From a virus (taxonomy: Duplodnaviria; Heunggongvirae; Uroviricota; Caudoviricetes), in the IMG/VR virus record IMGVR_UViG_3300029517_000085: a stretch of DNA of 22,813 nucleotides; one strand, 5' to 3'. Positions 1 to 22,813 of this stretch are shown here, piece by piece. Numbering within the stretch: position 1 is the stretch's first letter; each line of letters begins with the position of its first letter. Position numbers and translations under genes: made by a program. Below the pieces are notes generated by a model. That model saw only the letters and a program-made list of their open reading frames with translations. It had not been told where the DNA came from and did no database searches.

Positions 1-1313
1 CGGCCATTGTGGGGCTGGTTATCAAGCCTTTCCCGGAACCTGTCGTACTGTTAATTGCCGTTGCTGCCTCCATGGTGGTGGTCGGTAACTTATCCGACGG
101 TGCGTTTAAGACCACCGCCGTATTAAGCGGTTACTCTTCAGGTACTACCTGGCTGGTGTTCTCGGCGTTTACCTTAAGCGCCGCATTTGTGACCACCGGT
201 TTAGGTAAACGTATTGCCTATCTGCTGATTGGTAAAATCGGTAACACCACGCTGGGTCTGGGTTACGTTACGGTATTCCTCGATCTGGTACTGGCTCCGG
301 CAACACCGTCTAACACCGCGCGTGCGGGCGGCATTGTGTTACCGATCATCAACAGCGTGGCGGTGGCTTTGGGGTCCGAACCGGAAAAAAGTCCGCGTCG
401 TGTCGGACATTACCTGATGATGTCCATTTACATGGTCACCAAAACCACCAGCTATATGTTCTTTACCGCAATGGCGGGGAACATTCTGGCGCTGAAAATG
501 ATCAACGACATTCTGCACCTGCAAATTAGCTGGGGTGGATGGGCACTGGCCGCCGGATTGCCGGGCATCATTATGCTGCTGGTCACCCCACTGGTGATTT
601 ATACCATGTATCCGCCAGAAATTAAGAAGGTGGATAATAAAACCATCGCTAAAGCGGGCCTTGCCGAACTGGGACCGATGAAAATCCGCGAAAAAATGCT
701 GCTCGGTGTCTTTGTGCTGGCGCTACTGGGCTGGATTTTCAGTAAGTCTCTGGGGGTTGATGAATCCACTGTGGCAATCGTTGTTATGGCGACCATGCTG
801 CTGCTGGGTATCGTTACCTGGGAAGACGTGGTTAAAAATAAAGGCGGCTGGAATACCTTAATCTGGTACGGCGGTATTATCGGATTAAGCTCCTTATTAT
901 CGAAAGTTAAATTCTTCGAATGGTTAGCTGAAGTCTTTAAAAATAACCTGGCATTTGATGGTCACGGTAACGTTGCTTTCTTCGTTATTATTTTCCTCAG
1001 CATTATCGTGCGTTATTTCTTCGCTTCCGGTAGTGCCTATATCGTTGCTATGTTACCGGTATTTGCCATGCTGGCGAACGTCTCCGGCGCACCGTTAATG
1101 TTAACCGCGCTGGCACTGTTGTTCTCCAACTCCTATGGCGGCATGGTTACTCACTATGGCGGCGCGGCAGGTCCGGTCATCTTTGGCGTGGGTTATAACG
1201 ATATTAAATCCTGGTGGTTGGTCGGTGCGGTACTGACGATATTAACCTTCCTGGTGCATATCACCCTCGGCGTGTGGTGGTGGAATATGCTGATCGGCTG
1301 GAACATGCTGTAA
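1..1313 (+). CDS. ybhI: Putative DASS-family (divalent anion:Na+ symporter) inner-membrane transporter YbhI, 5' partial; the true start lies upstream of the window
   Basis: Open frame from the window edge to the stop at 1311-1313. Translation is highly hydrophobic with many predicted TM segments. Identity and synteny (ybhI-ybhJ-ybhC-attB) are from recall of E. coli K-12. Confidence 0.8.
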   Translation, partial: AIVGLVIKPFPEPVVLLIAVAASMVVVGNLSDGAFKTTAVLSGYSSGTTWLVFSAFTLSAAFVTTGLGKRIAYLLIGKIGNTTLGLGYVTVFLDLVLAPATPSNTARAGGIVLPIINSVAVALGSEPEKSPRRVGHYLMMSIYMVTKTTSYMFFTAMAGNILALKMINDILHLQISWGGWALAAGLPGIIMLLVTPLVIYTMYPPEIKKVDNKTIAKAGLAELGPMKIREKMLLGVFVLALLGWIFSKSLGVDESTVAIVVMATMLLLGIVTWEDVVKNKGGWNTLIWYGGIIGLSSLLSKVKFFEWLAEVFKNNLAFDGHGNVAFFVIIFLSIIVRYFFASGSAYIVAMLPVFAMLANVSGAPLMLTALALLFSNSYGGMVTHYGGAAGPVIFGVGYNDIKSWWLVGAVLTILTFLVHITLGVWWWNMLIGWNML

Positions 1314-1495
1314 ATATACTCGTCATACTTCAAGTTGCATGTGCTGCGTTTGCGTTCGCTCACCCCAGTCACTTACTTATGTAAGCTCCTGGGGATTCAC
1401 TCGCTTGTCGCCTTCCTGCAACTCGAATTATTTAGAGTATATCCATTTATTATCTTTCTGCGCACTTCACGGTGCGCAGATATCTGGAGCATTTG

Positions 1496-3757
1496 ATGAT
1501 CAAGTTATCTGAAAAAGGCGTGTTTCTCGCCAGTAATAACGAAATAATTGCCGAAGAACATTTCACCGGCGAAATTAAAAAAGAAGAAGCCAAAAAAGGC
1601 ACTATTGCCTGGTCTATTCTCTCTTCTCATAATACGTCCGGAAATATGGATAAACTTAAAATTAAGTTTGATTCATTAGCCTCTCACGATATTACCTTTG
1701 TTGGTATTGTACAGACCGCTAAAGCGTCCGGAATGGAACGTTTCCCGCTGCCGTATGTGCTGACCAACTGCCATAACTCACTCTGCGCCGTCGGCGGCAC
1801 CATTAACGGTGATGACCATGTTTTTGGTTTATCGGCAGCTCAGCGTTATGGCGGTATTTTTGTGCCTCCGCATATTGCGGTCATCCATCAATATATGCGT
1901 GAGATGATGGCAGGCGGCGGCAAAATGATCCTCGGGTCAGACAGCCACACCCGTTACGGTGCATTAGGGACAATGGCAGTCGGTGAGGGCGGCGGTGAGT
2001 TGGTAAAACAGCTGCTTAATGACACCTGGGATATCGACTATCCGGGAGTTGTTGCGGTGCATCTGACCGGAAAACCAGCGCCGTATGTGGGGCCGCAGGA
2101 TGTGGCGCTGGCTATCATCGGTGCCGTGTTCAAAAACGGCTACGTCAAAAACAAAGTGATGGAATTCGTAGGTCCCGGTGTTGCTGCGCTCTCTACCGAT
2201 TTCCGTAACAGCGTTGACGTTATGACCACTGAAACGACCTGTTTAAGTTCTGTCTGGCAAACCGATGAAGAAGTCCATAACTGGCTGGCGCTGCACGGTC
2301 GCGGCCAGGATTACTGCCAGCTTAACCCTCAACCGATGGCGTACTACGATGGCTGCATCAGCGTTGATTTAAGCGCCATCAAACCAATGATTGCGCTGCC
2401 GTTCCACCCGAGCAACGTGTATAAAATCGACACACTGAACCAGAACCTGACCGACATTCTGCGTGAGATTGAAATTGAGTCCGAACGCGTGGCGCACGGT
2501 AAAGCCAAACTCTCGCTGCTGGATAAAGTGGAAAATGGTCGCCTGAAAGTGCAGCAGGGGATTATCGCGGGCTGTTCTGGCGGTAACTACGAAAACGTCA
2601 TCGCGGCGGCGAATGCACTGCGCGGTCAATCCTGTGGCAATGACACCTTCTCGCTGGCAGTTTACCCGTCATCACAGCCGGTGTTTATGGATCTCGCCAA
2701 AAAAGGTGTGGTAGCAGATTTGATTGGCGCAGGCGCAATCATCAGAACCGCGTTCTGCGGCCCATGCTTTGGCGCGGGCGATACGCCAATCAACAACGGT
2801 TTGAGTATTCGCCACACCACGCGTAACTTCCCGAACCGCGAAGGCTCTAAGCCAGCTAATGGGCAGATGTCAGCGGTGGCGTTGATGGACGCTCGTTCTA
2901 TCGCTGCGACTGCGGCAAACGGTGGCTATTTAACCTCTGCCAGCGAACTTGATTGCTGGGACAACGTGCCGGAGTACGCCTTCGATGTAACGCCGTATAA
3001 AAACCGTGTTTATCAGGGCTTTGTGAAAGGGGCAACTCAGCAACCGCTGATTTACGGACCGAACATTAAAGACTGGCCGGAATTGGGTGCGCTGACTGAC
3101 AATATCGTCCTGAAAGTGTGCTCGAAGATCCTCGACGAAGTGACCACCACCGACGAACTGATTCCTTCCGGTGAAACCTCTTCTTATCGTTCAAATCCGA
3201 TTGGTCTGGCGGAGTTTACCCTGTCACGCCGCGATCCCGGTTATGTTGGCAGAAGTAAAGCGACTGCTGAGCTGGAAAATCAGCGTCTGGCGGGGAATGT
3301 CAGCGAGCTGACAGAGGTGTTTGCGCGCATTAAGCAGATTGCTGGTCAGGAGCATATTGATCCGCTGCAAACTGAAATTGGCAGCATGGTATATGCGGTG
3401 AAACCAGGCGATGGTTCTGCGCGTGAACAGGCGGCGAGCTGCCAGCGTGTGATTGGCGGTCTGGCGAATATTGCCGAAGAGTACGCGACTAAACGCTACC
3501 GTTCTAACGTCATCAACTGGGGGATGTTACCGCTGCAGATGGCGGAAGTGCCAACCTTTGAAGTGGGGGATTACATTTACATCCCTGGCATTAAAGCGGC
3601 GCTGGATAATCCGGGTACGACGTTTAAAGGTTATGTGATCCATGAAGATGCGCCGGTAACGGAAATTACGCTCTATATGGAAAGTCTGACTGCTGAAGAG
3701 CGCGAGATTATCAAGGCGGGTAGTTTGATTAACTTCAATAAAAACCGTCAGATGTAA
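1496..3757 (+). CDS. ybhJ: Aconitase-family putative hydratase YbhJ (753 aa from the ATG at 1496; the longest ORF starts at 1472)
   Basis: 761-aa ORF with an internal ATG at 1496 preceded by GGAG about 8 nt upstream. Aconitase-like Cys/Gly-rich segments (e.g. [14 protein letters not shown]). Start choice is based on the RBS and recalled K-12 length. Confidence 0.8.
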
Positions 3758-3769
3758 AAAGCGCCATGT

Positions 3770-3978
<209 letters not shown>

Positions 3979-3990
3979 AGTTAATTGCTC

Positions 3991-5274
3991 TTACTTCTTC
4001 GCCTCTGCAACCACTTTACTACCCACGCCGCGGTTATTGTATTCCCACATGCGGTTGTAGTTAGTGTCATTCAGATTGCGCTGTATTTCGTCGTTATCAT
4101 CTACGCTGCCGGTATTACCCGCAAACGGACGATTAGAGATCACCGCATCGGCCCACGGTTTAGCCGTGTTAAAACCTTCGTTGATGGCGCTATCACGGAT
4201 CACCACCTGACCGTTGGTATTGGCATCAACATCCAGCGAGCGGCCCAGTTGCGCCACACCATCACCGAAAGCATTGAAACGGCTGTTTACGGCGAGGAAA
4301 CCGTAGTAAATGTTGGACAGCGTAGCCGGTGCAAACACATACGCTTCTTGCTGAGTACGTGAGTTCACCACGCGGAATTCGGTGTTATCGAACACCACTG
4401 CGCCGCGACCAGAAACGATATCCACATCCCCTTCAATGTAGCTGTTGGTCACCAGCGTACGCGGCTGACGATTCGTTTCCAGACGGTTCTGCACACCGCT
4501 GTTGGTGACAAAGAAGGTGTTCTGACGACCGAGAATGTTAACGTTGTTAATCTGTACCTGGTCACCATCAGTACGCAGTGCCACCGCCGGATGGTTACCT
4601 GCATCTACGCTATCGCCCAGCGTGTTTTCGATGGTCAGATTTTGCAGTTGCAGGCCATTGTTTTGTGACCAGAAGACCGCAGAGCAGAGAACACCGATAC
4701 TGTCGCTGCGTTTGCTCTGGCAGCTATCGTACATATACCACGCTGGTTTACCTGGCATATATTTGCCGCGCGGGTTGACGTCGTGACGCCAGTCGGCAGG
4801 GCTCATGCCACCATCAAGGGAAAGCCCAATCTTCACATCAATCGGTTTTTCACCTGTACCGTACAGAGTAATTCCACCCGGAGCGGCAGGGACATATACC
4901 GTTCCCTGATACTCACCAGGCATCACGGCAATATACTGGCGCTTGTTGGTACGCTTGATAATTGCCGCATCTACCGCCGCCTGAATCGTGGTATGCGTTA
5001 CACCTTGAGTGCCCGCCGGGCCGACAACAAAGTCAGGTTGCGCAGGCAGGGTAATCGGGGAAGGATTCCACGCTGCAGCACCTGGTGTCAGGGATGCAAA
5101 ATAGTGTTGAGCATCGAAATTCTGCGCTTCTTTTGCCGACAGAATCGGGCGAGAAGAGGTACCAGGCGCGGTTTGATCAGAAGGACGTTGATCGGGCGGG
5201 GTTGAGCTACAGGCGGTCAGCGTCACGCCAAAAGCCAATGCCAGCGCCAGACGGGAAACTGAAAATGTGTTCAC
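3991..5274 (-). CDS. ybhC: Outer-membrane lipoprotein YbhC, pectinesterase-family fold
   Basis: 427-aa ORF. N-terminal signal peptide with lipobox LTAC-S (MNTFSVSRLALALAFGVTLTACSS). Position immediately chromosomal-side of the lambda attB core, as recalled for K-12. Confidence 0.85.
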   Translation of the reverse strand: MNTFSVSRLALALAFGVTLTACSSTPPDQRPSDQTAPGTSSRPILSAKEAQNFDAQHYFASLTPGAAAWNPSPITLPAQPDFVVGPAGTQGVTHTTIQAAVDAAIIKRTNKRQYIAVMPGEYQGTVYVPAAPGGITLYGTGEKPIDVKIGLSLDGGMSPADWRHDVNPRGKYMPGKPAWYMYDSCQSKRSDSIGVLCSAVFWSQNNGLQLQNLTIENTLGDSVDAGNHPAVALRTDGDQVQINNVNILGRQNTFFVTNSGVQNRLETNRQPRTLVTNSYIEGDVDIVSGRGAVVFDNTEFRVVNSRTQQEAYVFAPATLSNIYYGFLAVNSRFNAFGDGVAQLGRSLDVDANTNGQVVIRDSAINEGFNTAKPWADAVISNRPFAGNTGSVDDNDEIQRNLNDTNYNRMWEYNNRGVGSKVVAEAKK

Positions 5275-5310: not shown

Positions 5311-5412
5311 GTTGAAGCCTGCTTTTTTATACTAAGTTGGCATTATAAAAAAGCATTGCTTATCAATTTGTTGCAACGAACAGGTCACTATCAGTCAAAA
5401 TAAAATCATTAT
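5311..5412. other. attL: Prophage attL: bacterial arm + lambda core GCTTTTTTATACTAA (5321-5335) + P' arm with Int arm-type sites
   Basis: Sequence GAAGCCTGCTTTTTTATACTAAGTTGGCATTATAAAAAAGCATTGCTTATCAATTTGTTGCAACGAACAGGTCACTATCAGTCAAAATAAAATCATTATTTG matches the recalled lambda attP P' arm joined to attB. It lies directly next to int. Confidence 0.85.
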
Positions 5413-6479
5413 TTGATTTCAATTTTGTCCCACTCCCTGCCTCTGTCATCACGATACTGTGATGCCATGGTGTCCGACTTATGCCCGAGAAGATGTTGAG
5501 CAAACTTATCGCTTATCTGCTTCTCATAGAGTCTTGCAGACAAACTGCGCAACTCGTGAAAGGTAGGCGGATCCCCTTCGAAGGAAAGACCTGATGCTTT
5601 TCGTGCGCGCATAAAATACCTTGATACTGTGCCGGATGAAAGCGGTTCGCGACGAGTAGATGCAATTATGGTTTCTCCGCCAAGAATCTCTTTGCATTTA
5701 TCAAGTGTTTCCTTCATTGATATTCCGAGAGCATCAACATGCAATACTGTTGGGATGGCAATTTTTACGCCTGTTTTGCTTTGCTCGACATAAAGATATC
5801 CATCTACGATATCAGACCACTTCATTTCGCATAAATCACCAACTCGTTGCCCGGTAACAACAGCCAGTTCCATTGCAAGTCTGAGCCAACATGGTGATGA
5901 TTCTGCTGCTTGATAAATTTTCAGGTATTCGTCAGCCGTAAGTCTTGATCTCCTTACCTCTGATTTTGCTGCGCGAGTGGCAGCGACAGGGTTTGTTGTT
6001 ATATGGCCTTCAGCTATTGCCTCTCGGAATGCATCGCTCAGTGTTGATCTGATTAACTTGGCTGACGCCGCCTTGCCCTCGTCTATGTATCCATTGAGCA
6101 TTGCCGCAATTTCTTTTGTGGTGATGTCTTCAAGTGGAGCATCAGGCAGACCCCTCCTTATTGCTTTAATTTTGCTCATGTAATTTATGAGTGTCTTCTG
6201 CTTGATTCCTCTGCTGGCCAGGATTTTTTCGTAGCGATCAAGCCATGAATGTAACGTAACGGAATTATCACTGTTGATTCTCGCTGTCAGAGGCTTGTGT
6301 TTGTGTCCTGAAAATAACTCAATGTTGGCCTGTATAGCTTCAGTGATTGCGATTCGCCTGTCTCTGCCTAATCCAAACTCTTTACCCGTCCTTGGGTCCC
6401 TGTAGCAGTAATATCCATTGTTTCTTATATAAAGGTTAGGGGGTAAATCCCGGCGCTCATGACTTCGCCTTCTTCCCAT
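5409..6479 (-). CDS. int: Lambda-type tyrosine integrase Int (356 aa)
   Basis: Translation MGRRRSHERRDLPPNLYIRNNGYYCYRDPRTGKEFGLGRD... matches recalled lambda Int over its full length. Adjacent to attL. Confidence 0.95.
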   Translation of the reverse strand: MGRRRSHERRDLPPNLYIRNNGYYCYRDPRTGKEFGLGRDRRIAITEAIQANIELFSGHKHKPLTARINSDNSVTLHSWLDRYEKILASRGIKQKTLINYMSKIKAIRRGLPDAPLEDITTKEIAAMLNGYIDEGKAASAKLIRSTLSDAFREAIAEGHITTNPVAATRAAKSEVRRSRLTADEYLKIYQAAESSPCWLRLAMELAVVTGQRVGDLCEMKWSDIVDGYLYVEQSKTGVKIAIPTVLHVDALGISMKETLDKCKEILGGETIIASTRREPLSSGTVSRYFMRARKASGLSFEGDPPTFHELRSLSARLYEKQISDKFAQHLLGHKSDTMASQYRDDRGREWDKIEIK

Positions 6480-9817: not shown

Positions 9818-9996
9818 TCAGTGGTTGTCATACCTGGTCTCTCTCATCTGCTTCTGCTTTCGCCACCATCATTTCCAGCTTTTGTGAAAGGGATGCGGCT
9901 AACGTATGAAATTCTTCGTCTGTTTCTACTGGTATTGGCACAAACCTGACTCCAATTTGAGCGAGGCTATGTGCCATCTCGATACACGTTCNNNNN

Positions 9997-10185
9997 NNNN
10001 NNNNNNNNNNNNNNNNNNNNNNNNNNNNNNNNCCGTTTATTATTTATCTCCTCAGCCAGCCGCTGTGCTTTCAGGGGATTTCTGATAACAGAAAGGCCGG
10101 GAAATACCCAGCCTCGCTTTGTAACGGAGTAGACGAAAGTGATCGCACCTACCCGGATATTATCGTGAGGATGCTTCATCGCCAT
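9997..10185 (-). CDS. Lambda orf60a-like small protein; 3' end falls inside the masked N run (9992-10032)
   Basis: N-terminal 51 aa [51 protein letters not shown] match recalled lambda orf60a. The rest is unreadable because of Ns. The end coordinate is inferred from the lambda length. Confidence 0.5.
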
Positions 10186-12158: not shown

Positions 12159-12291
12159 TTTTTGGGACTCCTGGCTGATTAAGTATGTCGATAAGGCGTT
12201 TCCATCCGTCACGTAATTTACGGGTGATTCGTTCAAGTAAAGATTCGGAAGGGCAGCCAGCAACAGGCCACCCTGCAATGGCATATTGCAT
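12127..12291 (-). CDS. cIII: CIII (FtsH/HflB inhibitor protecting CII), 54 aa
   Basis: Hand translation from the minus-strand ATG at 12289-12291 gives MQYAIAGW... and ends ...YGYPD with stop at 12127-12129. Below the ORF-track size cut-off. Overlaps kil out of frame. Confidence 0.85.
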   Translation of the reverse strand: MQYAIAGWPVAGCPSESLLERITRKLRDGWKRLIDILNQPGVPKNGSNTYGYPD

Positions 12292-12363
12292 GGTGTGCTC
12301 CTTATTTATACATAACGAAAAACGCCTCGAGTGAAGCGTTATTGGTATGCGGTAACGCCGCGC

Positions 12364-17023: not shown

Positions 17024-17923
17024 ATGACAAATACAGCAAAAATACTCAACTTCGGCAGAGGTAACTTTGCCGGACAGGAGCGTAATGTGGCAGATCTCGA
17101 TGATGGTTACGCCAGACTATCAAATATGCTGCTTGAGGCTTATTCGGGCGCAGATCTGACCAAGCGACAGTTTAAAGTGCTGCTTGCCATTCTGCGTAAA
17201 ACCTATGGGTGGAATAAACCAATGGACAGAATCACCGATTCTCAACTTAGCGAGATTACAAAGTTACCTGTCAAACGGTGCAATGAAGCCAAGTTAGAAC
17301 TCGTCAGAATGAATATTATCAAGCAGCAAGGCGGCATGTTTGGACCAAATAAAAACATCTCAGAATGGTGTATCCCTCAAAACGAGGGAAAATCCCCTAA
17401 AACGAGGGATAAAACATCCCTCAAATTGGGGGATTGCTATCCCTCAAAACAGGGGGACACAAAAGACACTATTACAAAAGAAAAAAGAAAAGATTATTCG
17501 TCCGAGAATTCTGGCGAATCCTCTGACCAGCCAGAAAACGATCTTTCTGTGGTTAAACCGGATGCTGCAATTCAGAGCGGCAGTAAGTGGGGAACAGCAG
17601 AAGACCTGACCGCCGCAGAGTGGATGTTTGACATGGTGAAGACCATCGCGCCATCAGCCAGAAAACCGAATTTTGCTGGGTGGGCTAACGATATCCGCCT
17701 GATGCGTGAACGTGACGGACGTAACCACCGCGACATGTGTGTACTGTTCCGCTGGGCATGCCAGGACAACTTCTGGTCCGGTAACGTGCTTAGCCCGGCC
17801 AAACTCCGCGACAAGTGGACCCAGCTCGAAATCAACCGTAACAAGCAACAGGCAGTCGTGACAGCCAGCAAACCAAAACTCGACCTGACAAACACTGACT
17901 GGATTTACGGGGTGGATCTATGA
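17024..17923 (+). CDS. O: Lambda replication initiator O (299 aa)
   Basis: MTNTAKILNFGRGNFAGQERNVADLDDGYARLSNMLLEAYSGADLTKRQFKVLLAILRKTYGWNKP… matches recalled lambda O. Contains the ori iterons. Confidence 0.95.
   Translation: MTNTAKILNFGRGNFAGQERNVADLDDGYARLSNMLLEAYSGADLTKRQFKVLLAILRKTYGWNKPMDRITDSQLSEITKLPVKRCNEAKLELVRMNIIKQQGGMFGPNKNISEWCIPQNEGKSPKTRDKTSLKLGDCYPSKQGDTKDTITKEKRKDYSSENSGESSDQPENDLSVVKPDAAIQSGSKWGTAEDLTAAEWMFDMVKTIAPSARKPNFAGWANDIRLMRERDGRNHRDMCVLFRWACQDNFWSGNVLSPAKLRDKWTQLEINRNKQQAVVTASKPKLDLTNTDWIYGVDL
17372..17500 (+). other. ori: ori-lambda: four ~18-bp O-binding iterons followed by an A/T-rich unwinding region
   Basis: ATCCCTCAAAACGAGGGA, ATCCCCTAAAACGAGGGA, ATCCCTCAAATTGGGGGA and ATCCCTCAAAACAGGGGGA at 17372-17457, then ACAAAAGACACTATTACAAAAGAAAAAAGAAAAGATTATT. 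Confidence 0.9.
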
Positions 17924-18408
17924 AAAACATCGCCGCACAGATGGTTAACTTTGACCGTGAGCAGATGCGTCGGATCGCCAACAACATGCCGGAACAGTAC
18001 GACGAAAAGCCGNNNNNNNNNNTACAGCAGGTAGCGCAGATCATCAACGGTGTGTTCAGCCAGTTACTGGCAACTTTCCCGGCGAGTCTGGCTAACCGTG
18101 ACCAGAACGAACTGAACGAAATCCGCCGCCAGTGGGTTCTGGCTTTCCGGGAAAACGGGATCACCACAATGGAACAGGTTAACGCAGGAATGCGCGTAGC
18201 CCGTCGGCAGAATCGACCATTTCTGCCATCACCCGGGCAGTTTGTTGCATGGTGCCGGGAAGAAGCATCCGTTATCGCCGGACTGCCAAACGTCAGCGAG
18301 CTGGTTGATATGGTTTACGAGTATTGCCGGAAGCGAGGCCTGTATCCGGATGCGGAGTCTTATCCGTGGAAATCAAACGCGCACTACTGGCTGGTTACCA
18401 ACCTGTAA
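17920..18408 (+). CDS. P: Replication protein P, C-terminally truncated (162 aa versus 233 aa recalled for lambda); a 10-nt N run at 18013-18022 masks a few codons
   Basis: MKNIAAQMVNFDREQMRRIANNMPEQYDEKP…SNAHYWLVTNL matches recalled lambda P up to about residue 162, then hits a stop at 18406-18408 where lambda continues (YQNMRANAL…). Confidence 0.8.
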   Translation: MKNIAAQMVNFDREQMRRIANNMPEQYDEKPXXXXQQVAQIINGVFSQLLATFPASLANRDQNELNEIRRQWVLAFRENGITTMEQVNAGMRVARRQNRPFLPSPGQFVAWCREEASVIAGLPNVSELVDMVYEYCRKRGLYPDAESYPWKSNAHYWLVTNL

Positions 18409-18514
18409 AGGGCATGCCAAGCAAGTCGATGCTGCATATGCAAAAGAATGCGCGCTGGAAGGTATGGCGAGAACACAGGTTATCTGGCTGAAAGAGGGGG
18501 TTATTAAGGCGTGA
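18409..18514 (+). pseudogene. 3' remnant of a ybcO-like (DLP12 nin-region) gene fused downstream of truncated P
   Basis: Frame ending at 18514 encodes …[29 protein letters not shown], matching the recalled C-terminus of K-12 YbcO, with no corresponding N-terminal part. Stop overlaps the rusA GTG start (GTGA). Confidence 0.55.
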
Positions 18515-18873
18515 ATACCTACAGCATCACATTACCCTGGCCTCCGAGCAATAATCGCTATTACCGCCATAATCGCGGGCGCACGCACGTCAGCGCAGAG
18601 GGGCAGGCATACCGCGATAACGTCGCCCGAATCATTAAAAACGCAATGCTGGATATCGGCCTGACTATGCCTGTGAAAATCCGCATTGAGTGCCACATGC
18701 CGGATCGCCGTCGCCGTGACCTGGATAATCTGCAAAAAGCCGCTTTTGACGCACTCACTAAAGCAGGTTTCTGGCTGGATGATGCTCAGGTCGTTGATTA
18801 CCGCGTTGTGAAGATGCCTGTTACCAAAGGTGGGAGGCTGGAACTGACCATCACCGAAATGGGGAATGAATGA
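18511..18873 (+). CDS. rusA: RusA Holliday-junction resolvase (120 aa), GTG start
   Basis: [51 protein letters not shown]… matches recalled E. coli DLP12 RusA almost residue for residue. Confidence 0.93.
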
Positions 18874-19010
18874 TGTTTGAGTTTAATATGGCAGAACTTC
18901 TTCGCCACCGCTGGGGGCGTCTGCGCTTATATCGTTTCCCCGGTTCTGTTTTGACCGATTACCGAATACTGAAGAATTACGCCAAAACACTGACAGGAGC
19001 AGGAGTATGA
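18870..19010 (+). CDS. ylcG: YlcG-like small protein (46 aa)
   Basis: Hand-translated [46 protein letters not shown] with stop at 19008-19010. Overlaps the rusA stop (ATGA-type). Matches recalled DLP12 ylcG. Confidence 0.7.
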
Positions 19011-19095
19011 AGTCAGAGATAACAATCAACTAATACTGTTTTGTTGATTTTTGCTTGTAATTGGCGTTCTGGTCTGAGTTTTGTGGAGTAAGTTG

Positions 19096-19473
19096 ATGCG
19101 TGATATTCAGATGGTTCTTGAGCGTTGGGGAGCGTGGGCGGCTAATAATCATGAAGATGTGACCTGGTCGTCCATTGCCGCCGGTTTTAAGGGATTAATT
19201 CCTTCAAAAGTAAAATCTCGCCCACAATGTTGTGACGATGACGCGATGATCATTTGCGGGTGCATGGCCCGTCTGAAAAAGAACAACAGCGATTTGCATG
19301 ATTTATTGGTGGACTATTATGTCGGCGGCATGACTTTTATGGCGCTTGCACGTAAGCATGGGCGATCTGATTGTTGGGTTGGCAGGATGCTTCAGAAAGC
19401 TGAGGGCGTAGTGGAGGGTATGCTGATGGTGTTGGATCTCCGATTGGAGATGGATGCTGATTGTTCGAAATAA
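19096..19473 (+). CDS. Q: Late-gene antiterminator Q (phage 82/DLP12 QuuD-type), ~125 aa from the ATG at 19096
   Basis: [75 protein letters not shown]… matches recalled QuuD. GGAG SD 8 nt upstream of the ATG; the ORF track's TTG start at 19081 is less likely. Confidence 0.88.
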
Positions 19474-19572
19474 TTAAAGGAAAAGTTGCTGTCTGATTGT
19501 CATTAGTCTAACATTTTAAATGTTGGAATCGCAACGTAGTTATTATCATATAACAGCTTGTTTCCTGATTTA
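19474..19572 (+). promoter_or_regulatory. Candidate late promoter pR' with Q-utilisation region (exact -35/-10 not resolved)
   Basis: Positional inference: interval immediately downstream of Q and upstream of a strong intrinsic terminator. Contains TTGGAA…TATCAT-like hexamers with non-ideal spacing. Confidence 0.35.
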
Positions 19573-19600
19573 GCCAGCCTCCCCAAAGGCTGGTTTTTTT
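19573..19600 (+). terminator. Intrinsic terminator (tR'-like on the plus strand; may also terminate convergent blc-like transcription)
   Basis: CCAGCCT-CCCCAA-AGGCTGG followed by TTTTTTT (7 T) on the plus strand. Confidence 0.75.
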
Positions 19601-19628
19601 CTAATAAGTATTATTTCGGGTAGGGATT

Positions 19629-20153
19629 TTATTGTTTAACCCATAATAATTCATTGACATTGAATCCCAACTTTTGAGCGGTTCGCACATAGTCTGCTTT
19701 TACTTTATCTGGAATAGTTGGGGTCCTTGCCAGAATCCATAGGTATTCTCTGTTCGGACCACTGACAAGAGCATACTTATACTCATCATCCAGTTTGATT
19801 ACATTATAGCCACCATAGAAGGGGCCAAAAAACGAAACCTTCAATGCTGCAGTTTTAGTATCTCCAGTAAAGTATGCTTTACCTTCGCTCTCGCTCCATT
19901 TATTTTTCGTTGGATCGTATCCACGGTTAAGTACACGAATCCCTCCGTCGTTCCGTTTTCCATAAGTAGCGCTGACCTGTTCCAGACCACGTTCGAACCG
20001 GTTCTCGAGGCGAGCTATTTCATACCATTTTCCGAGGTAGCGGTTGGCGTCAAAATTTGTAATCGGCTGCACACCTTTAGGTGGTGTCGGGGCCTTACAT
20101 GCTATAAGAGTGAAAGAGAGTGCAATGCCAGTCAACACAGGCCATAACTTCAT
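19629..20153 (-). CDS. Bacterial lipocalin (Blc-like) outer-membrane lipoprotein, 174 aa; prophage cargo
   Basis: Signal peptide with lipobox (LIAC-K). Lipocalin SCR1 motif YLGKWYEIARLENRFE plus …KVSFFGPFYGGYNVI…YLWILARTP resemble recalled E. coli Blc. Opposite strand to the flanking phage late genes. Confidence 0.8.
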   Translation of the reverse strand: MKLWPVLTGIALSFTLIACKAPTPPKGVQPITNFDANRYLGKWYEIARLENRFERGLEQVSATYGKRNDGGIRVLNRGYDPTKNKWSESEGKAYFTGDTKTAALKVSFFGPFYGGYNVIKLDDEYKYALVSGPNREYLWILARTPTIPDKVKADYVRTAQKLGFNVNELLWVKQ

Positions 20154-20345
20154 AATAAATCCTGTACCTTTGATAGTTGAGAGTAAGTATGAAAGATAGA
20201 TGATTACGACCGATCACTTAAAGAACTTTCATACTATATTAGGAATAGTCCATAACAGAAAAATTGTCAGTGATGACGCCAGAAAGGCAATTTATTCCGT
20301 GCACTACACAGTTTATGTGTTAATGAATTAGTCAAGGGGGAGAAT

Positions 20346-21305
20346 ATGATAAAAAAACCTGTGATTGGAATCAGCGGTTGTTTGGCCGGTTCTGCTGTTC
20401 GTTTTGATGGTGGTCACAAAAGAGCTGACTTTTTAATGGACAAATTAGTGGAATGGGTAACATTCAGACCAGTATGTCCGGAAATGGCTATAGGGCTGCC
20501 AGTTCCGCGTCCTGCTCTACGTCTTGTGCGCTCGACGCAAGGAAATATACGGATGTGTTTCAGCCACGACCAGAATGAGGATGTGACAGAGAGAATGACA
20601 GAGTTTAGTCGTTCTTATATGGACAAATTAAAGGATGTATCGGGGTTTGTGGTTTGTGCTAAATCTCCCAGCTGTGGCATGGAGCGCGTGCGTGTCTATG
20701 ATGAAAATGGTAATCGAGGTCGTAAAGATGGAGTGGGACTATTTACGAGCACTTTGATGGAAAAGTTTTCCTGGCTACCGGTTGAAGAGGATGGGCGATT
20801 ACATGATCCAGTGCTTCGTGAGAATTTTATTGAAAGAGTTTTTGCTTTGCATGAGCTCAATCACCTTTACAAGGAGAAATTATCAAGAAGAGAGTTATTA
20901 GCTTTTCATAGTCGTTATAAGCTTCAGTTGTTGGCGCATAGCCAGGCAGGCTATAAAGATATGGGACCATTTGTGGCTGCAATACACGAGTGGGCGGACC
21001 TTGAATCATACTTTGAGGTGTATCGTGATAAGCTGATGGCGATTCTCAGAAAACCTGCATCACGTAAAAATCACACGAATGTGCTGATGCATATACAGGG
21101 GTATTTTAGTAACTACTTAAGTACACGCCAGCGTAAAGAGTTGAGCGAGGTTATACTTAACTATCGTTCTGGCACATTACCTCTTCTTGCGCCGTTGACT
21201 CTGCTGAAGCATTATCTGGGTGAGTATCCTAATGATTACTTGCTTACACAGAATTACTTCGATCCCTATCCGGACGAACTGGCTCTAAGACTGATGGTAA
21301 ATTAA
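20346..21305 (+). CDS. DUF523/DUF1722-like protein (TudS/YbgA-like, possible Fe-S enzyme), 319 aa; prophage cargo
   Basis: N-terminus KPVIGISGCLAGSAVRFDGGHK and conserved Cys (CPE, CAKSPSCG) resemble the recalled DUF523 (thiouracil desulfidase-like) signature. C-terminal half resembles YbgA-like DUF1722. Family call from motif memory only. Confidence 0.5.
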   Translation: MIKKPVIGISGCLAGSAVRFDGGHKRADFLMDKLVEWVTFRPVCPEMAIGLPVPRPALRLVRSTQGNIRMCFSHDQNEDVTERMTEFSRSYMDKLKDVSGFVVCAKSPSCGMERVRVYDENGNRGRKDGVGLFTSTLMEKFSWLPVEEDGRLHDPVLRENFIERVFALHELNHLYKEKLSRRELLAFHSRYKLQLLAHSQAGYKDMGPFVAAIHEWADLESYFEVYRDKLMAILRKPASRKNHTNVLMHIQGYFSNYLSTRQRKELSEVILNYRSGTLPLLAPLTLLKHYLGEYPNDYLLTQNYFDPYPDELALRLMVN

Positions 21306-21647
21306 TTGTATGCGATATCATCCAAAAGGATGAGTTCCTGCATGCAGGATATTTACAATCGTAAAAACTACACTATGATACCCAGAGTGTCAGTTTGTAT
21401 AAAAACTCTGTTTACGCTGAAGAAACAATTGAGATGCAACTTAAAGTTGGTAAACATGCCAGTCAAAATATATAATATTATGATTCCACGCAGCTATATA
21501 TAATATAACGGATTGGTTTAATAATTTGTCTTTGTGAGTTAAATACATAATTTTATACTTGTGATGCAATGAAATTTTCCTTATTGTTGAACTGGCGAAT
21601 ATTGATTTTCCACCTATACTTACCTGGTGTAACCCCAATGATATCAG

Positions 21648-22388
21648 GTGGATAATATGCCATACATATGTTCTATCATTTTGGTGTTGAACTCGTTTGA
21701 TGTCCGAATTGGTAAAGAAGATATTTTGTTTAAAAAAGGAAGTGCTGTTCTCATTGATTACAATTTAAAAGATTTTTTTTCATCAAATATAGATCATGTA
21801 ATGATCGTAGATGTTGAAGAGAAAACAGTTAATGATTTCTTTAAAAGCAACACACTCTCACCTTTTTCTGTAAGAAGGTTTTATCCGGCATACTTGATGG
21901 TGGAATGTGAAGATTTTTCATTGTTAAAGAACTTGATTGCATGCTTGAATTGTGATGGCAGAACTGTGGATTTTGTTAGAAATCAAATATCACTTGCATG
22001 TCTTGCTATCTTATCTTCAGAGAAAATAGTGCAAAGTTTTTTATTTGGATGTCTTAATGGTTTAGGAAGTAAAGTTAAGGCTATTATTCACACGGATATA
22101 TCTGCAGCATGGAGACTTTGTGATATATCTTCAAGACTGTATCTGAGTGAAAGTCTGTTAAAAAGAAAATTAAAGCACGAAGGCTTATCATTTAGTAAGT
22201 TAATTCTTGAAGAGCGAATGGTGATGGCGGAAAGGTTATTAAGCTACAATTTATATTCTGTTGGAAAAGTTGCTGAGATATGCGGTTATGAAAACACGTC
22301 ATATTTTGTAAGTGTTTTCAGAAGGTATTTTGGTGTTCCTCCCCATCAATATTCATCAAGATTTTTTTTAGAAAAAGACATGATGTAA
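21648..22388 (+). CDS. AraC/XylS-family transcriptional regulator (246 aa), AppY/GadX-like; prophage cargo
   Basis: C-terminal dual HTH signature (…LLKRKLKHEGLSFSKLILEERMVMAERLLSYNLYSVGKVAEICGYENTSYFVSVFRRYFGVPPHQY). Very AT-rich gene and upstream region. Confidence 0.8.
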   Translation: MDNMPYICSIILVLNSFDVRIGKEDILFKKGSAVLIDYNLKDFFSSNIDHVMIVDVEEKTVNDFFKSNTLSPFSVRRFYPAYLMVECEDFSLLKNLIACLNCDGRTVDFVRNQISLACLAILSSEKIVQSFLFGCLNGLGSKVKAIIHTDISAAWRLCDISSRLYLSESLLKRKLKHEGLSFSKLILEERMVMAERLLSYNLYSVGKVAEICGYENTSYFVSVFRRYFGVPPHQYSSRFFLEKDMM

Positions 22389-22575
22389 CGTGATGCGTTT
22401 TAATGATTTTGTAATTTTCGTATTTGATAATTGTATGATGCTTTCAGCTACGCCAGAATAATCGCGGCGTTTTTCTTTTTGAATAGATGTTCAAGCCTTA
22501 CGCTAATGTAACTTCTATACCTTTCCTCTTCGTTCCGAACCGTGTACACCATCCGTTATTTGCGGAGGTGAGGCT

Positions 22576-22791
22576 ATGAAATCCATGGATAAGTTAACAA
22601 CGGGCATTGCCTACGGCACCTCCGCAGGCAGTGCTGGCTACTGGTTTTTACAGCTGCTCGATAAAGTCACGCCCTCACAGTGGGCAGCAATAGGTGTGCT
22701 GGGTAGCTTGGTATTTGGCCTGCTGACGTACCTGACAAACCTTTATTTCAAGATTAAAGAAGATAAGCGCAAGGCTGCGAGAGGTGAATAA
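22576..22791 (+). CDS. S: Phage-21-type pinholin S (71 aa) with dual-start motif (antiholin from Met1, holin from Met4)
   Basis: [71 protein letters not shown] closely matches recalled phage 21 S / DLP12 EssD. Two TM segments. Confidence 0.88.
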
Positions 22792-22813
22792 TGCCTCCAT
22801 CATTACGAAAAGC
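22791..22813 (+). CDS. R: Endolysin (SAR-endolysin R21/RrrD-like), 5' fragment only; continues beyond the window
   Basis: ATG overlapping the holin stop (TAATG). First codons MPPSLRK match the recalled N-terminus of DLP12 RrrD / phage 21 R. Confidence 0.6.

Follow-up and report, generated by a model that had tools for sequence, protein, structure and literature searches.

What are three genes that are neither structural genes nor conserved members of a late operon doing between the late antiterminator gene Q and the holin gene S of a lambdoid prophage? The question is raised by a stretch of 22,813 nt of DNA, the IMG/VR virus record IMGVR_UViG_3300029517_000085 (hereafter the window, at its full length), in which positions 19629-22388 contain three intact open reading frames (ORFs) with exactly the coordinates given in an initial annotation made from the sequence alone. 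The first, on the minus strand (19629-20153, 174 aa), is a paralogue of blc, encoding an outer-membrane lipocalin lipoprotein; the second (20346-21305, plus strand, 319 aa) is rudS, encoding a fusion of a TudS (DUF523) domain and a DUF1722 domain; and the third (21657-22388, plus strand, 243 aa) encodes an AraC/XylS regulator of the PatE/YdeO clade and is called araC here. We consider it very probable that the three form a dispensable accessory module, or moron, in the Q-S slot of the prophage and that all three are working genes; the promoter assignments, the read-through by Q, the targets of the regulator, and the fitness benefit to the lysogen are what we infer within this reading. All three family assignments of the initial annotation pass curated profile cut-offs, and its placement of the genes as cargo holds as well.

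The 319-aa protein had been described as DUF523/DUF1722-like with a TudS-like, Cys-containing N-terminus. Profile searches place the 2-thiouracil desulfurase/DUF523 domain (PF04463) at residues 7-149 (E = 3.1e-40) and the DUF1722 domain (PF08349) at residues 192-309 (E = 1.9e-40), while homology and structure searches returned RudS_vir, the product of H3V29_gp66 of phage 1H12, at 93% identity, and the TudS structure 6z92. Fusions of TudS with DUF1722 have been defined as RudS enzymes, which convert 4-thiouridine (s4U) in tRNA to uridine by means of a [4Fe-4S] cluster, with the DUF1722 domain mediating the binding of tRNA (PMC11417400, NAR 2024). In RudS_vir and RudS_ST, the cluster is ligated by Cys12, Cys44, and Cys110 (PMC11417400, Table 1). 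The window protein has the same three cysteines, within the motifs ISGCLAG, RPVCPEM, and SPSCGME, and they are identical in the alignment to RudS_vir; Cys12 and Cys44 also align with 6z92. The catalytic residues reported for RudS_KT are Glu51, Ser111, Ser113, and Arg60 (PMC11417400). The window protein has Glu46 (in CPE), Ser107 and Ser109 (in KSPSCG), and Arg55 (in PVPRP), which were placed by their offset from neighbouring cysteines and not by alignment to RudS_KT. The domain fusion, the three cysteines, and the Glu/Arg/Ser positions are common to the window protein and to RudS_KT, RudS_ST/ORF319, and RudS_vir. By its sequence the protein is a RudS, that is, a predicted eraser of 4-thiouridine in tRNA.

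In the same study, every RudS assayed, RudS_vir included, lowered s4U in E. coli tRNA, and a Pseudomonas orthologue shortened the near-UV growth arrest that s4U8-C13 cross-links cause (PMC11417400). E. coli is said there to lack RudS and to have only YbgA, a stand-alone DUF1722 protein (PMC11417400). The YbgA of strain K-12 aligns to residues 164-315 only of the window RudS, at 49% identity, and since the core genome of E. coli keeps only this DUF1722 remnant, ybgA, the prophage would supply an activity that its host lacks. Among isolated phages, full-length RudS was found only in 12 records of E. coli lambdoid phages, the same ones that carry the three-gene cassette. The window enzyme would thus turn tRNA s4U into uridine by means of a [4Fe-4S] cluster with Cys12, Cys44, and Cys110 as ligands, while its DUF1722 domain holds the tRNA, and prophage RudS would lower the s4U content of tRNA in the host.

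The initial annotation had offered thionucleobase/Fe-S chemistry as the role of this protein. The Fe-S desulfidase part of that proposal stands, with the TudS domain and the cysteine ligands in place; the substrate is narrowed to tRNA s4U, free thiouracils not being the main substrate of RudS enzymes in the study just cited. That the protein acts mainly as a desulfidase of thiouracil free bases or nucleotides, in salvage of the TudS type, strikes us as improbable. Its TudS domain is intact, to be sure, and on 4-thiouracil RudS_vir had a shorter lag than any other RudS enzyme, together with a tRNA desulfidation lower than that of the others despite good protein levels (PMC11417400). Nevertheless, no RudS supported growth as TudS did and none grew on 2-thiouracil (PMC11417400), the loss of tRNA s4U was seen with all variants, RudS_vir among them, and the fused DUF1722 domain, which binds tRNA (PMC11417400), is under purifying selection here.

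The minus-strand gene had been read as encoding a Blc-like lipoprotein, and this is confirmed by the NCBIfam Blc profile (NF007786, 316.1 bits against a cut-off of 267), by Lipocalin_2 (PF08212, E = 7.2e-44), by an LIAC lipobox, and by the lipocalin motif GKWYEIAR (residues 41-48), which is aligned with GTWYEIAR of the Blc of K-12. The N-terminus reads MKLWPVLTGIALSFTLIAC followed by KAPTPP, so that the lipobox is L-I-A-C with Cys19 and has Lys at +2, with no inner-membrane retention signal; by these signals the protein is of the outer-membrane lipoprotein type. In a search of solved structures it matched those of Blc (3mbt and 1qwd) at E = 1e-68. E. coli Blc (1QWD, 2ACO, 3MBT) and the window protein belong to the same length class and fold family and have the lipobox and the lipocalin motif in common. 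However, the window protein is only 60% identical to the Blc of K-12, whose gene is the chromosomal one adjoining ampC, and it represents a second Blc type, the gene for which neighbours rudS in Enterobacter-like genomes.

The regulator has a C-terminal double helix-turn-helix (HTH_18, E = 1.2e-14; HTH_AraC, E = 2.1e-11). Its best NCBIfam match is YdeO (NF007407), over the full length and with E = 2.9e-36, but the 125.4 bits of this match lie below the cut-off of 348, so by profile it is a relative of YdeO and not a YdeO equivalog; the GadX, HilD, and HilC profiles match the DNA-binding half only. Its relatives form a narrow group of 28 clusters, almost all of them from E. coli, and a related regulator gene is found at the bio-proximal end of prophages at the lambda site. 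The protein is 53% identical over 235 aa to ECs_0287 of strain Sakai, the probable PatE and the product of an AraC gene located at one end of prophage Sp1, which we take to be the same as CP-933H. PatE is Z0321, described as RpoS-dependent and as the putative regulator that prophage CP-933H carries in O-island 8, and it activates gadE and hdeAB and represses genes of the enterocyte effacement locus (LEE); PsrB likewise is reported to activate the gadE and hdeAB promoters (PMC10877973). Prophage-borne AraC regulators of the PatE/YdeO clade are, in the same source, an established theme of enterohaemorrhagic E. coli (EHEC) (PMC10877973). PatE, PsrA, and PsrB of EHEC O157:H7 and YdeO of K-12 are, like the window regulator, small (243-247 aa) and encoded by AT-rich genes, and PatE and the Psr proteins are prophage-borne as it is. 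The window gene lies in the Q-S slot, whereas the probable PatE gene lies at a prophage end. By analogy with PatE and PsrB, the regulator probably activates the host acid-resistance promoters gadE and hdeAB.

An AlphaFold model of the regulator (predicted local distance difference test score, pLDDT, 78.8) has CsvR, Rns, and ToxT as its best full-length matches in the PDB (Foldseek E from 1e-10 to 5e-7, template-modelling (TM) score ~0.5), and its DNA-binding domain matches 3mkl at 41% identity (TM 0.81-0.84). The model places the protein in the class of small AraC regulators of the Rns/ToxT type, some of which have been crystallised with a bound fatty acid. The initial annotation had called the gene AppY/GadX-like; the AraC/XylS family and the AT-richness stand, but the closest relatives are YdeO and PatE, not AppY or GadX. 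The AT-rich upstream DNA that it pointed out is real, as 21306-21656 (351 nt) has 32% GC, as does the gene, against 46% for the window. Translation most likely starts at ATG 21657 (243 aa) rather than at GTG 21648 (246 aa), because the former has the ribosome-binding site AGGTGGA, agrees with the start annotated in RefSeq, and is kept in the different alleles.

The Q-S slot is, as had been proposed, a cargo hotspot, since phages with similar Q and S genes have an OmpD/NmpC porin gene in it. Many phages in the phage collection whose Q and S flanks are ~90-95% identical to those of the window, ev243 among them, carry the porin gene between the two; in the comparison with ev243, homology breaks off at 19455 and picks up again at 22565, the right edge of the swapped module, 11 nt upstream of the holin gene. 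In DLP12-type phages, the nmpC/ompD gene occupies the same slot between Q/pR'/tR' and the holin and, like blc, runs antisense to the late operon. In contrast, the window cassette has different cargo, and two of its three genes are in sense. Shiga toxin (Stx) phages have stx and tRNA genes in this slot; no tRNA genes were found in the slot of the window.

The whole segment is present in 12 records of the phage collection, and isolated, plaque-forming phages are among its carriers. In phage IdasGreatGrand, and likewise in phage 1H12 with the Lambda_ev087 group (genus Jouyvirus), the genes are ordered and oriented as in the window and lie, as there, between Q and the holin gene. Nucleotide identity is 98.4% to IdasGreatGrand over 19000-22813 and ~90% to the 1H12/Lambda_ev087 group. 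The 1H12 cassette consists of gp65 (Blc), gp66 (RudS_vir), and gp67 (a hypothetical protein), with which the Blc, RudS, and regulator of the window are 97%, 93%, and 82% identical, respectively. The window thus holds an allelic variant of the 1H12 cassette, with indels in the rudS-araC spacer and, elsewhere in its prophage, a truncated P gene. Among 5,426 complete E. coli genomes, 1,156 (~21%) have the cassette, and 992 of these (~86%) carry at least 80% of the segment. Copies lie at several places in the chromosome, and the ORFs are all intact both in the window and, at an identity of at least 99%, in hundreds of E. coli genomes. Interruptions by the insertion sequences (IS) IS1, IS2, and IS3 are frequent, and a few copies are partial, with blc and rudS but no araC, or with rudS and araC but no blc.

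Given that sister phages have a porin gene in its place, and that copies are often interrupted or partial, the cassette is cargo that can be dispensed with. At the same time, the ratio of nonsynonymous to synonymous substitution (dN/dS) between the window and the 1H12 allele is 0.06 for blc, 0.11 for rudS, and 0.27 for araC, with dS at 0.20-0.36. These ratios are similar to those of Q and S, and all three genes are therefore maintained by selection; the cassette is a dispensable accessory module, yet it is under purifying selection. As expected of a moron, it is missing from close relatives in which both flanks are retained. A promoter and terminator of its own together with a deviant GC content would also be expected of a moron; araC has a promoter-like site, a terminator, and 32% GC, and no promoter was confidently predicted for blc or clear for rudS. 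In an earlier survey, more than 50% of the lambda phages from infant guts had blc, which was classed there as a moron (PMC6969025).

Two further copies came up in these comparisons. E. coli NEBExpress, a laboratory strain of E. coli B (locus L103, 3123-5712), has a Qin-like cryptic prophage with the cassette, in which Q and blc are intact and rudS is cut after ~49 codons by an IS3, the remainder being deleted. A contig of 2113 bp assigned to a "Candidatus Nanosynbacter" metagenome-assembled genome (JARKOR010000135.1, locus L023) encodes Q, Blc, and the start of RudS at 99-100% protein identity and is most likely a binning contaminant.

Where two of the three genes came from can be read from chromosomal loci. 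Ten species, from the genera Enterobacter, Leclercia, Huaxiibacter, Buttiauxella, and Raoultella, encode the second Blc type, which is 74-81% identical to the phage Blc, and in all ten a RudS orthologue (70-73%) is encoded 0.9-1.5 kb away in divergent orientation, as in the phage. At the single such locus that we examined, in Enterobacter intestinihominis (L027), a gene for a MerR/MlrA-like regulator and a transthyretin/HIUase-like gene lie between blc and rudS. In the stretch 2648-3883 of this locus, the regulator combines MerR helix-turn-helix, MlrA helical, and C-terminal domains, and the transthyretin/HIUase-family gene follows it, upstream of rudS. The 192-nt blc-rudS spacer of the phage has no nucleotide homology to the Enterobacter-type chromosomal spacer, similarity ending at the coding edges, so the MerR operator was not carried over. 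Chromosomal RudS genes adjoin MerR or LitR regulators and light-response genes, whereas the window rudS sits in a phage late region without that regulator. The shared neighbourhood shows, on sequence grounds, that blc and rudS were captured as one unit, with loss of their native MerR regulator, and the nucleotide identity of ~67-73% puts this capture long ago. This common chromosomal neighbourhood is new here and argues against independent pick-ups of the two genes.

Chromosomal orthologues of RudS are also widespread elsewhere in Enterobacterales, at 70-76% identity. In Citrobacter and Klebsiella, rudS is the last gene of a conserved cluster encoding SnoaL, SDR, amine oxidase, DUF1365, cyclopropane-fatty-acid-synthase-like, DUF2878, chalcone-isomerase-like, and DUF3833 proteins. 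No lipocalin is encoded in this cluster; a 175-aa unannotated protein in it was considered as a lipocalin partner and rejected, since it does not resemble Blc and gave nothing beyond a weak match of the chalcone-isomerase-like kind. As for araC, its GC content of 32% is so different from the 43-44% of blc and rudS that a separate acquisition is indicated.

How the cassette would be transcribed depends on the elements around Q and between the genes. Just downstream of the Q stop codon is a tentative late promoter, pR' (19487-19515, plus strand; TTGCTG, a 17-nt spacer, and TAACAT), which is conserved in cassette alleles, and at the position of lambda tR' there is an intrinsic terminator (19572-19605, plus strand) with a 9-bp stem, 5 GC pairs, and a T7 run, folding at -14.9 kcal/mol (z = -3.5). 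A pR'-like site and then a U7 hairpin after Q would be the arrangement expected for pR' and tR'. Since the hairpin has no U-tract on the minus strand, it would be a poor terminator for blc. Alignment to a porin-carrying sister phage did not confirm pR', the region after Q being unalignable beyond a short ATATAACAG block. Rfam searches, at the gathering threshold over the whole window and at E <= 1 over 19400-22813, gave nothing credible in the cassette; the sole sub-threshold match in 19400-22813 overlaps the tR'-like hairpin. On induction, Q-modified polymerase would read through the 19572-19605 terminator, cross blc antisense, and then transcribe rudS, araC, and the lysis genes in sense.

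Because blc is antisense to late transcription, it needs a promoter of its own in the lysogen, from which it would be expressed there; during induction, late transcription would oppose it. The blc promoter presumably lies in the divergent blc-rudS spacer (20154-20345, 192 nt), which may contain one for rudS as well. The spacer and its coding flanks have ~96% mean column identity across alleles, where synonymous divergence is 0.2-0.28, and in the 120 nt of spacer nearest blc ~5% of positions differ by our own count. A 43-aa ORF at 20200-20331 that is annotated in some phage records was dismissed, as a stop codon shortens it in other alleles. With this layout, lysogenic conversion by blc is plausible, and for rudS and araC, in sense downstream of Q, expression on induction would be equally plausible.

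The last point could be taken further. Lambdoid prophages are induced by UV damage, and sunlight cross-links tRNA s4U, brings translation to a stall, and increases ppGpp, to the detriment of lambda development. It is possible, though we doubt it, that rudS and perhaps araC serve the lytic cycle, with Q-dependent RudS stripping s4U and keeping translation available for virions. As rudS lies in sense downstream of pR' and tR', Q should also raise its expression on induction, and araC lies in sense downstream of the same elements; no strong promoter is predicted for rudS itself, which has a strong ribosome-binding site (AAGGGGGAG). The confinement of RudS, among isolated phages, to the 12 cassette-bearing records would fit such a role, as would the lowering of s4U by RudS and the reduction of ultraviolet A (UVA) growth delay by the Pseudomonas orthologue (PMC11417400). 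On the other hand, the chromosomal relatives are host stress genes beside a MerR regulator, so that an origin in benefit to the lysogen would be no less natural. Conservation of the blc-rudS spacer exceeds that of synonymous sites, which suggests independent regulation, and the cassette is intact in many cryptic prophages.

The araC gene looks from its sequence like a self-contained transcription unit, because it has a conserved promoter-like site and a terminator after it. The promoter-like site (21352-21379, plus strand; TTTACA, a 16-nt spacer, and TATGAT) matches the consensus at 10 of 12 positions, tied for the best of the scan. Both hexamers are invariant, and the 16-nt spacer nearly so, in three cassette alleles whose surrounding sequence is rich in indels and substitutions. 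A 65-aa ORF annotated in some phage records at 21306-21503 lies in this indel-rich sequence and was rejected. Directly after the rudS stop codon and abutting the araC -35 hexamer is a stem-loop (21306-21347; -19.3 kcal/mol, z = -4.4) whose sequence is not conserved in the 1H12 allele. After araC, a terminator-like hairpin with a T-run occupies 22450-22480 (plus strand); the other alleles keep ACGCCAG...CTGGCGTTTTTCTTTT, and in the window a 1-nt deletion weakens it (-8.1 kcal/mol, z ~0). The regulator would accordingly be expressed from its own conserved sigma-70 promoter through a long leader to a terminator, and would act on host acid-resistance promoters.

If the promoter call is right, the araC transcript has an AT-rich leader of ~270 nt (21380-21656, plus strand, 32% GC). 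Within it, the invariant block TTTCCACCTATACTTAC (21607-21623) can pair through TCCACCT with the Shine-Dalgarno sequence AGGTGGA (21646-21652), and in a consensus fold UCCACCU and AGGUGGA are base-paired in every allele; the loop varies, no covariation was seen, and z is about -1. An anti-Shine-Dalgarno hairpin or RNA thermometer in the leader is, on this folding, a lead only. The toxT and lcrF thermometers are translational gates to which such a hairpin could be compared. The probable PatE gene has a leader that is laid out in a similar way. A 13-nt direct repeat, GGAAAAGTTGCTG, occurs exactly at 19479-19491, where it overlaps the -35 hexamer of the putative pR', and at 22263-22275, inside araC; about 0.07 such repeats are expected by chance (a rough estimate), and no function is apparent. 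Otherwise, a search of the cassette for repeats and shared operator-like motifs returned only short matches at chance level.

A different role for araC would be to replace the lost MerR regulator and mainly to control blc and rudS in cis, not the acid-resistance genes of the host. We think this rather unlikely. A MerR/MlrA-like regulator is indeed present in the E. intestinihominis neighbourhood and missing from the phage copy, the three genes occur together in ~86% of carrier genomes, and the blc-rudS spacer is unusually conserved. Nevertheless, the difference in GC content between araC and the other two genes indicates separate acquisitions, some genomes have blc and rudS without araC or rudS and araC without blc, no repeat or motif is common to the spacer and the araC region, and the homologue PatE acts on host promoters (PMC10877973).

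A more elaborate version, which we put forward as unlikely, is that of a portable near-UV/stress module that has changed control. Here, blc and rudS would have been lifted together from a MerR-controlled chromosomal locus, losing the MerR sensor and gaining as new inputs the Q antiterminator and a PatE-like AraC regulator, the translation of the latter maybe being gated by the anti-Shine-Dalgarno hairpin. On induction by sunlight, the phage would erase the s4U photosensor, avoid translation arrest and the stringent response, and so protect late protein synthesis, and the tolerance of the lysogen would be altered. If this is true, low-level expression in lysogens would alter UVA and acid tolerance in about one-fifth of E. 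coli strains.

Positions 1-5274 of the window are E. coli chromosome (ybhI-ybhJ-ybhC), and a lambdoid prophage follows at the lambda attachment site (attB), with the same gene order and chromosomal flank as a near-identical annotated prophage of strain STEC309. Its genes include those for the integrase (5409-6479, minus strand), O (17024-17923), a truncated P, RusA (18511-18873), and YlcG, after which comes Q. The Q gene (19096-19473, plus strand) encodes a late antiterminator of the Q21 family of 125 aa from ATG 19096; in the mechanical list of ORFs it begins at TTG 19081. It matches Phage_antitermQ (PF06530, E = 2.5e-51) in the profile search and, distantly, the solved Q21 structure 6p18 (E = 1.9e-8), and it is labelled a Q family antiterminator in identical RefSeq prophages. 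On the other side of the cassette, the first lysis gene (22576-22791, plus strand) encodes a P21-type, EssD-like holin S (Phage_holin_2_1, PF04971, E = 2.2e-35). Two Rfam elements score above the gathering threshold, a lambda cIII thermoregulator element in the early-left region of the prophage (12246-12304, minus strand) and a naRNA4/REP-type element in the ybhJ-ybhC chromosomal flank (3852-3922, plus strand). The window contains two runs of N, of 41 bases at 9992-10032 and of 10 bases at 18013-18022, the second being within P, where it appears as XXXX in the translation.

Compared with the STEC309 prophage, to which it is otherwise 98-99.8% identical, the window prophage is missing ~2.16 kb of the nin region, with the junction at 18402-18407 (within 17920-18510). 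The deleted stretch comprises the 3' end of P, ren, ninB, an adenine methyltransferase gene, ninE, and ninX. What is left of P is 162 aa long, and the prophage is therefore probably replication-defective. One might ask whether the segment is then just functionless, decaying junk in a cryptic prophage, as the truncated P with its deletion, the common IS insertions in the cassette, and the 1-nt deletion in the post-araC terminator could suggest. We find this scarcely credible, as none of the three ORFs is broken in the window or in the hundreds of genomes that have them at an identity of at least 99%, dN/dS is 0.06-0.27, and the cassette is also carried by isolated, plaque-forming phages.

Several points nevertheless weigh against a dispensable moron module with three working genes or against parts of that reading. 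With P truncated, induction and late transcription may not occur in the window copy. The pR' call is tentative, the region being unalignable to the sister phage although the Q genes are ~90% identical, and the blc and rudS promoters are weak consensus matches only (9 of 12 positions in the promoter scan). That ECs_0287 is PatE is probable from its position, not from a named sequence, and the window regulator is only 53% identical to it. The comparatively low tRNA desulfidation by RudS_vir and its short lag on 4-thiouracil, described above, mean that its preferred substrate in vivo may or may not be tRNA s4U, and the rescue from UVA growth delay was shown with the Pseudomonas enzyme and not with the phage enzyme (PMC11417400).

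The cassette is real, ordinary, and mostly already known, with only the regulator uncharacterised: it has been sequenced and annotated in isolated phages, and its rudS has been cloned and assayed as RudS_vir (PMC11417400). What is added here is the identification of the "DUF" protein of the initial annotation as RudS, the prevalence of ~21% in complete E. coli genomes, the synteny that points to a joint origin of blc and rudS at a MerR-linked locus, and the conserved promoter-like site of araC. The literature has E. coli without RudS (PMC11417400), yet about one-fifth of sequenced E. coli strains carry a prophage copy, so where strains differ in s4U level, in UVA growth delay, or in the stringent response, a prophage could be the reason. 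A temperate phage here carries an eraser of a tRNA modification, as predicted from sequence, in the place where Stx phages carry tRNA and toxin genes, and beside it a widespread relative of the EHEC regulators of acid resistance and type III secretion. No concept is changed by this, but it offers a testable handle on the physiology of lysogens.

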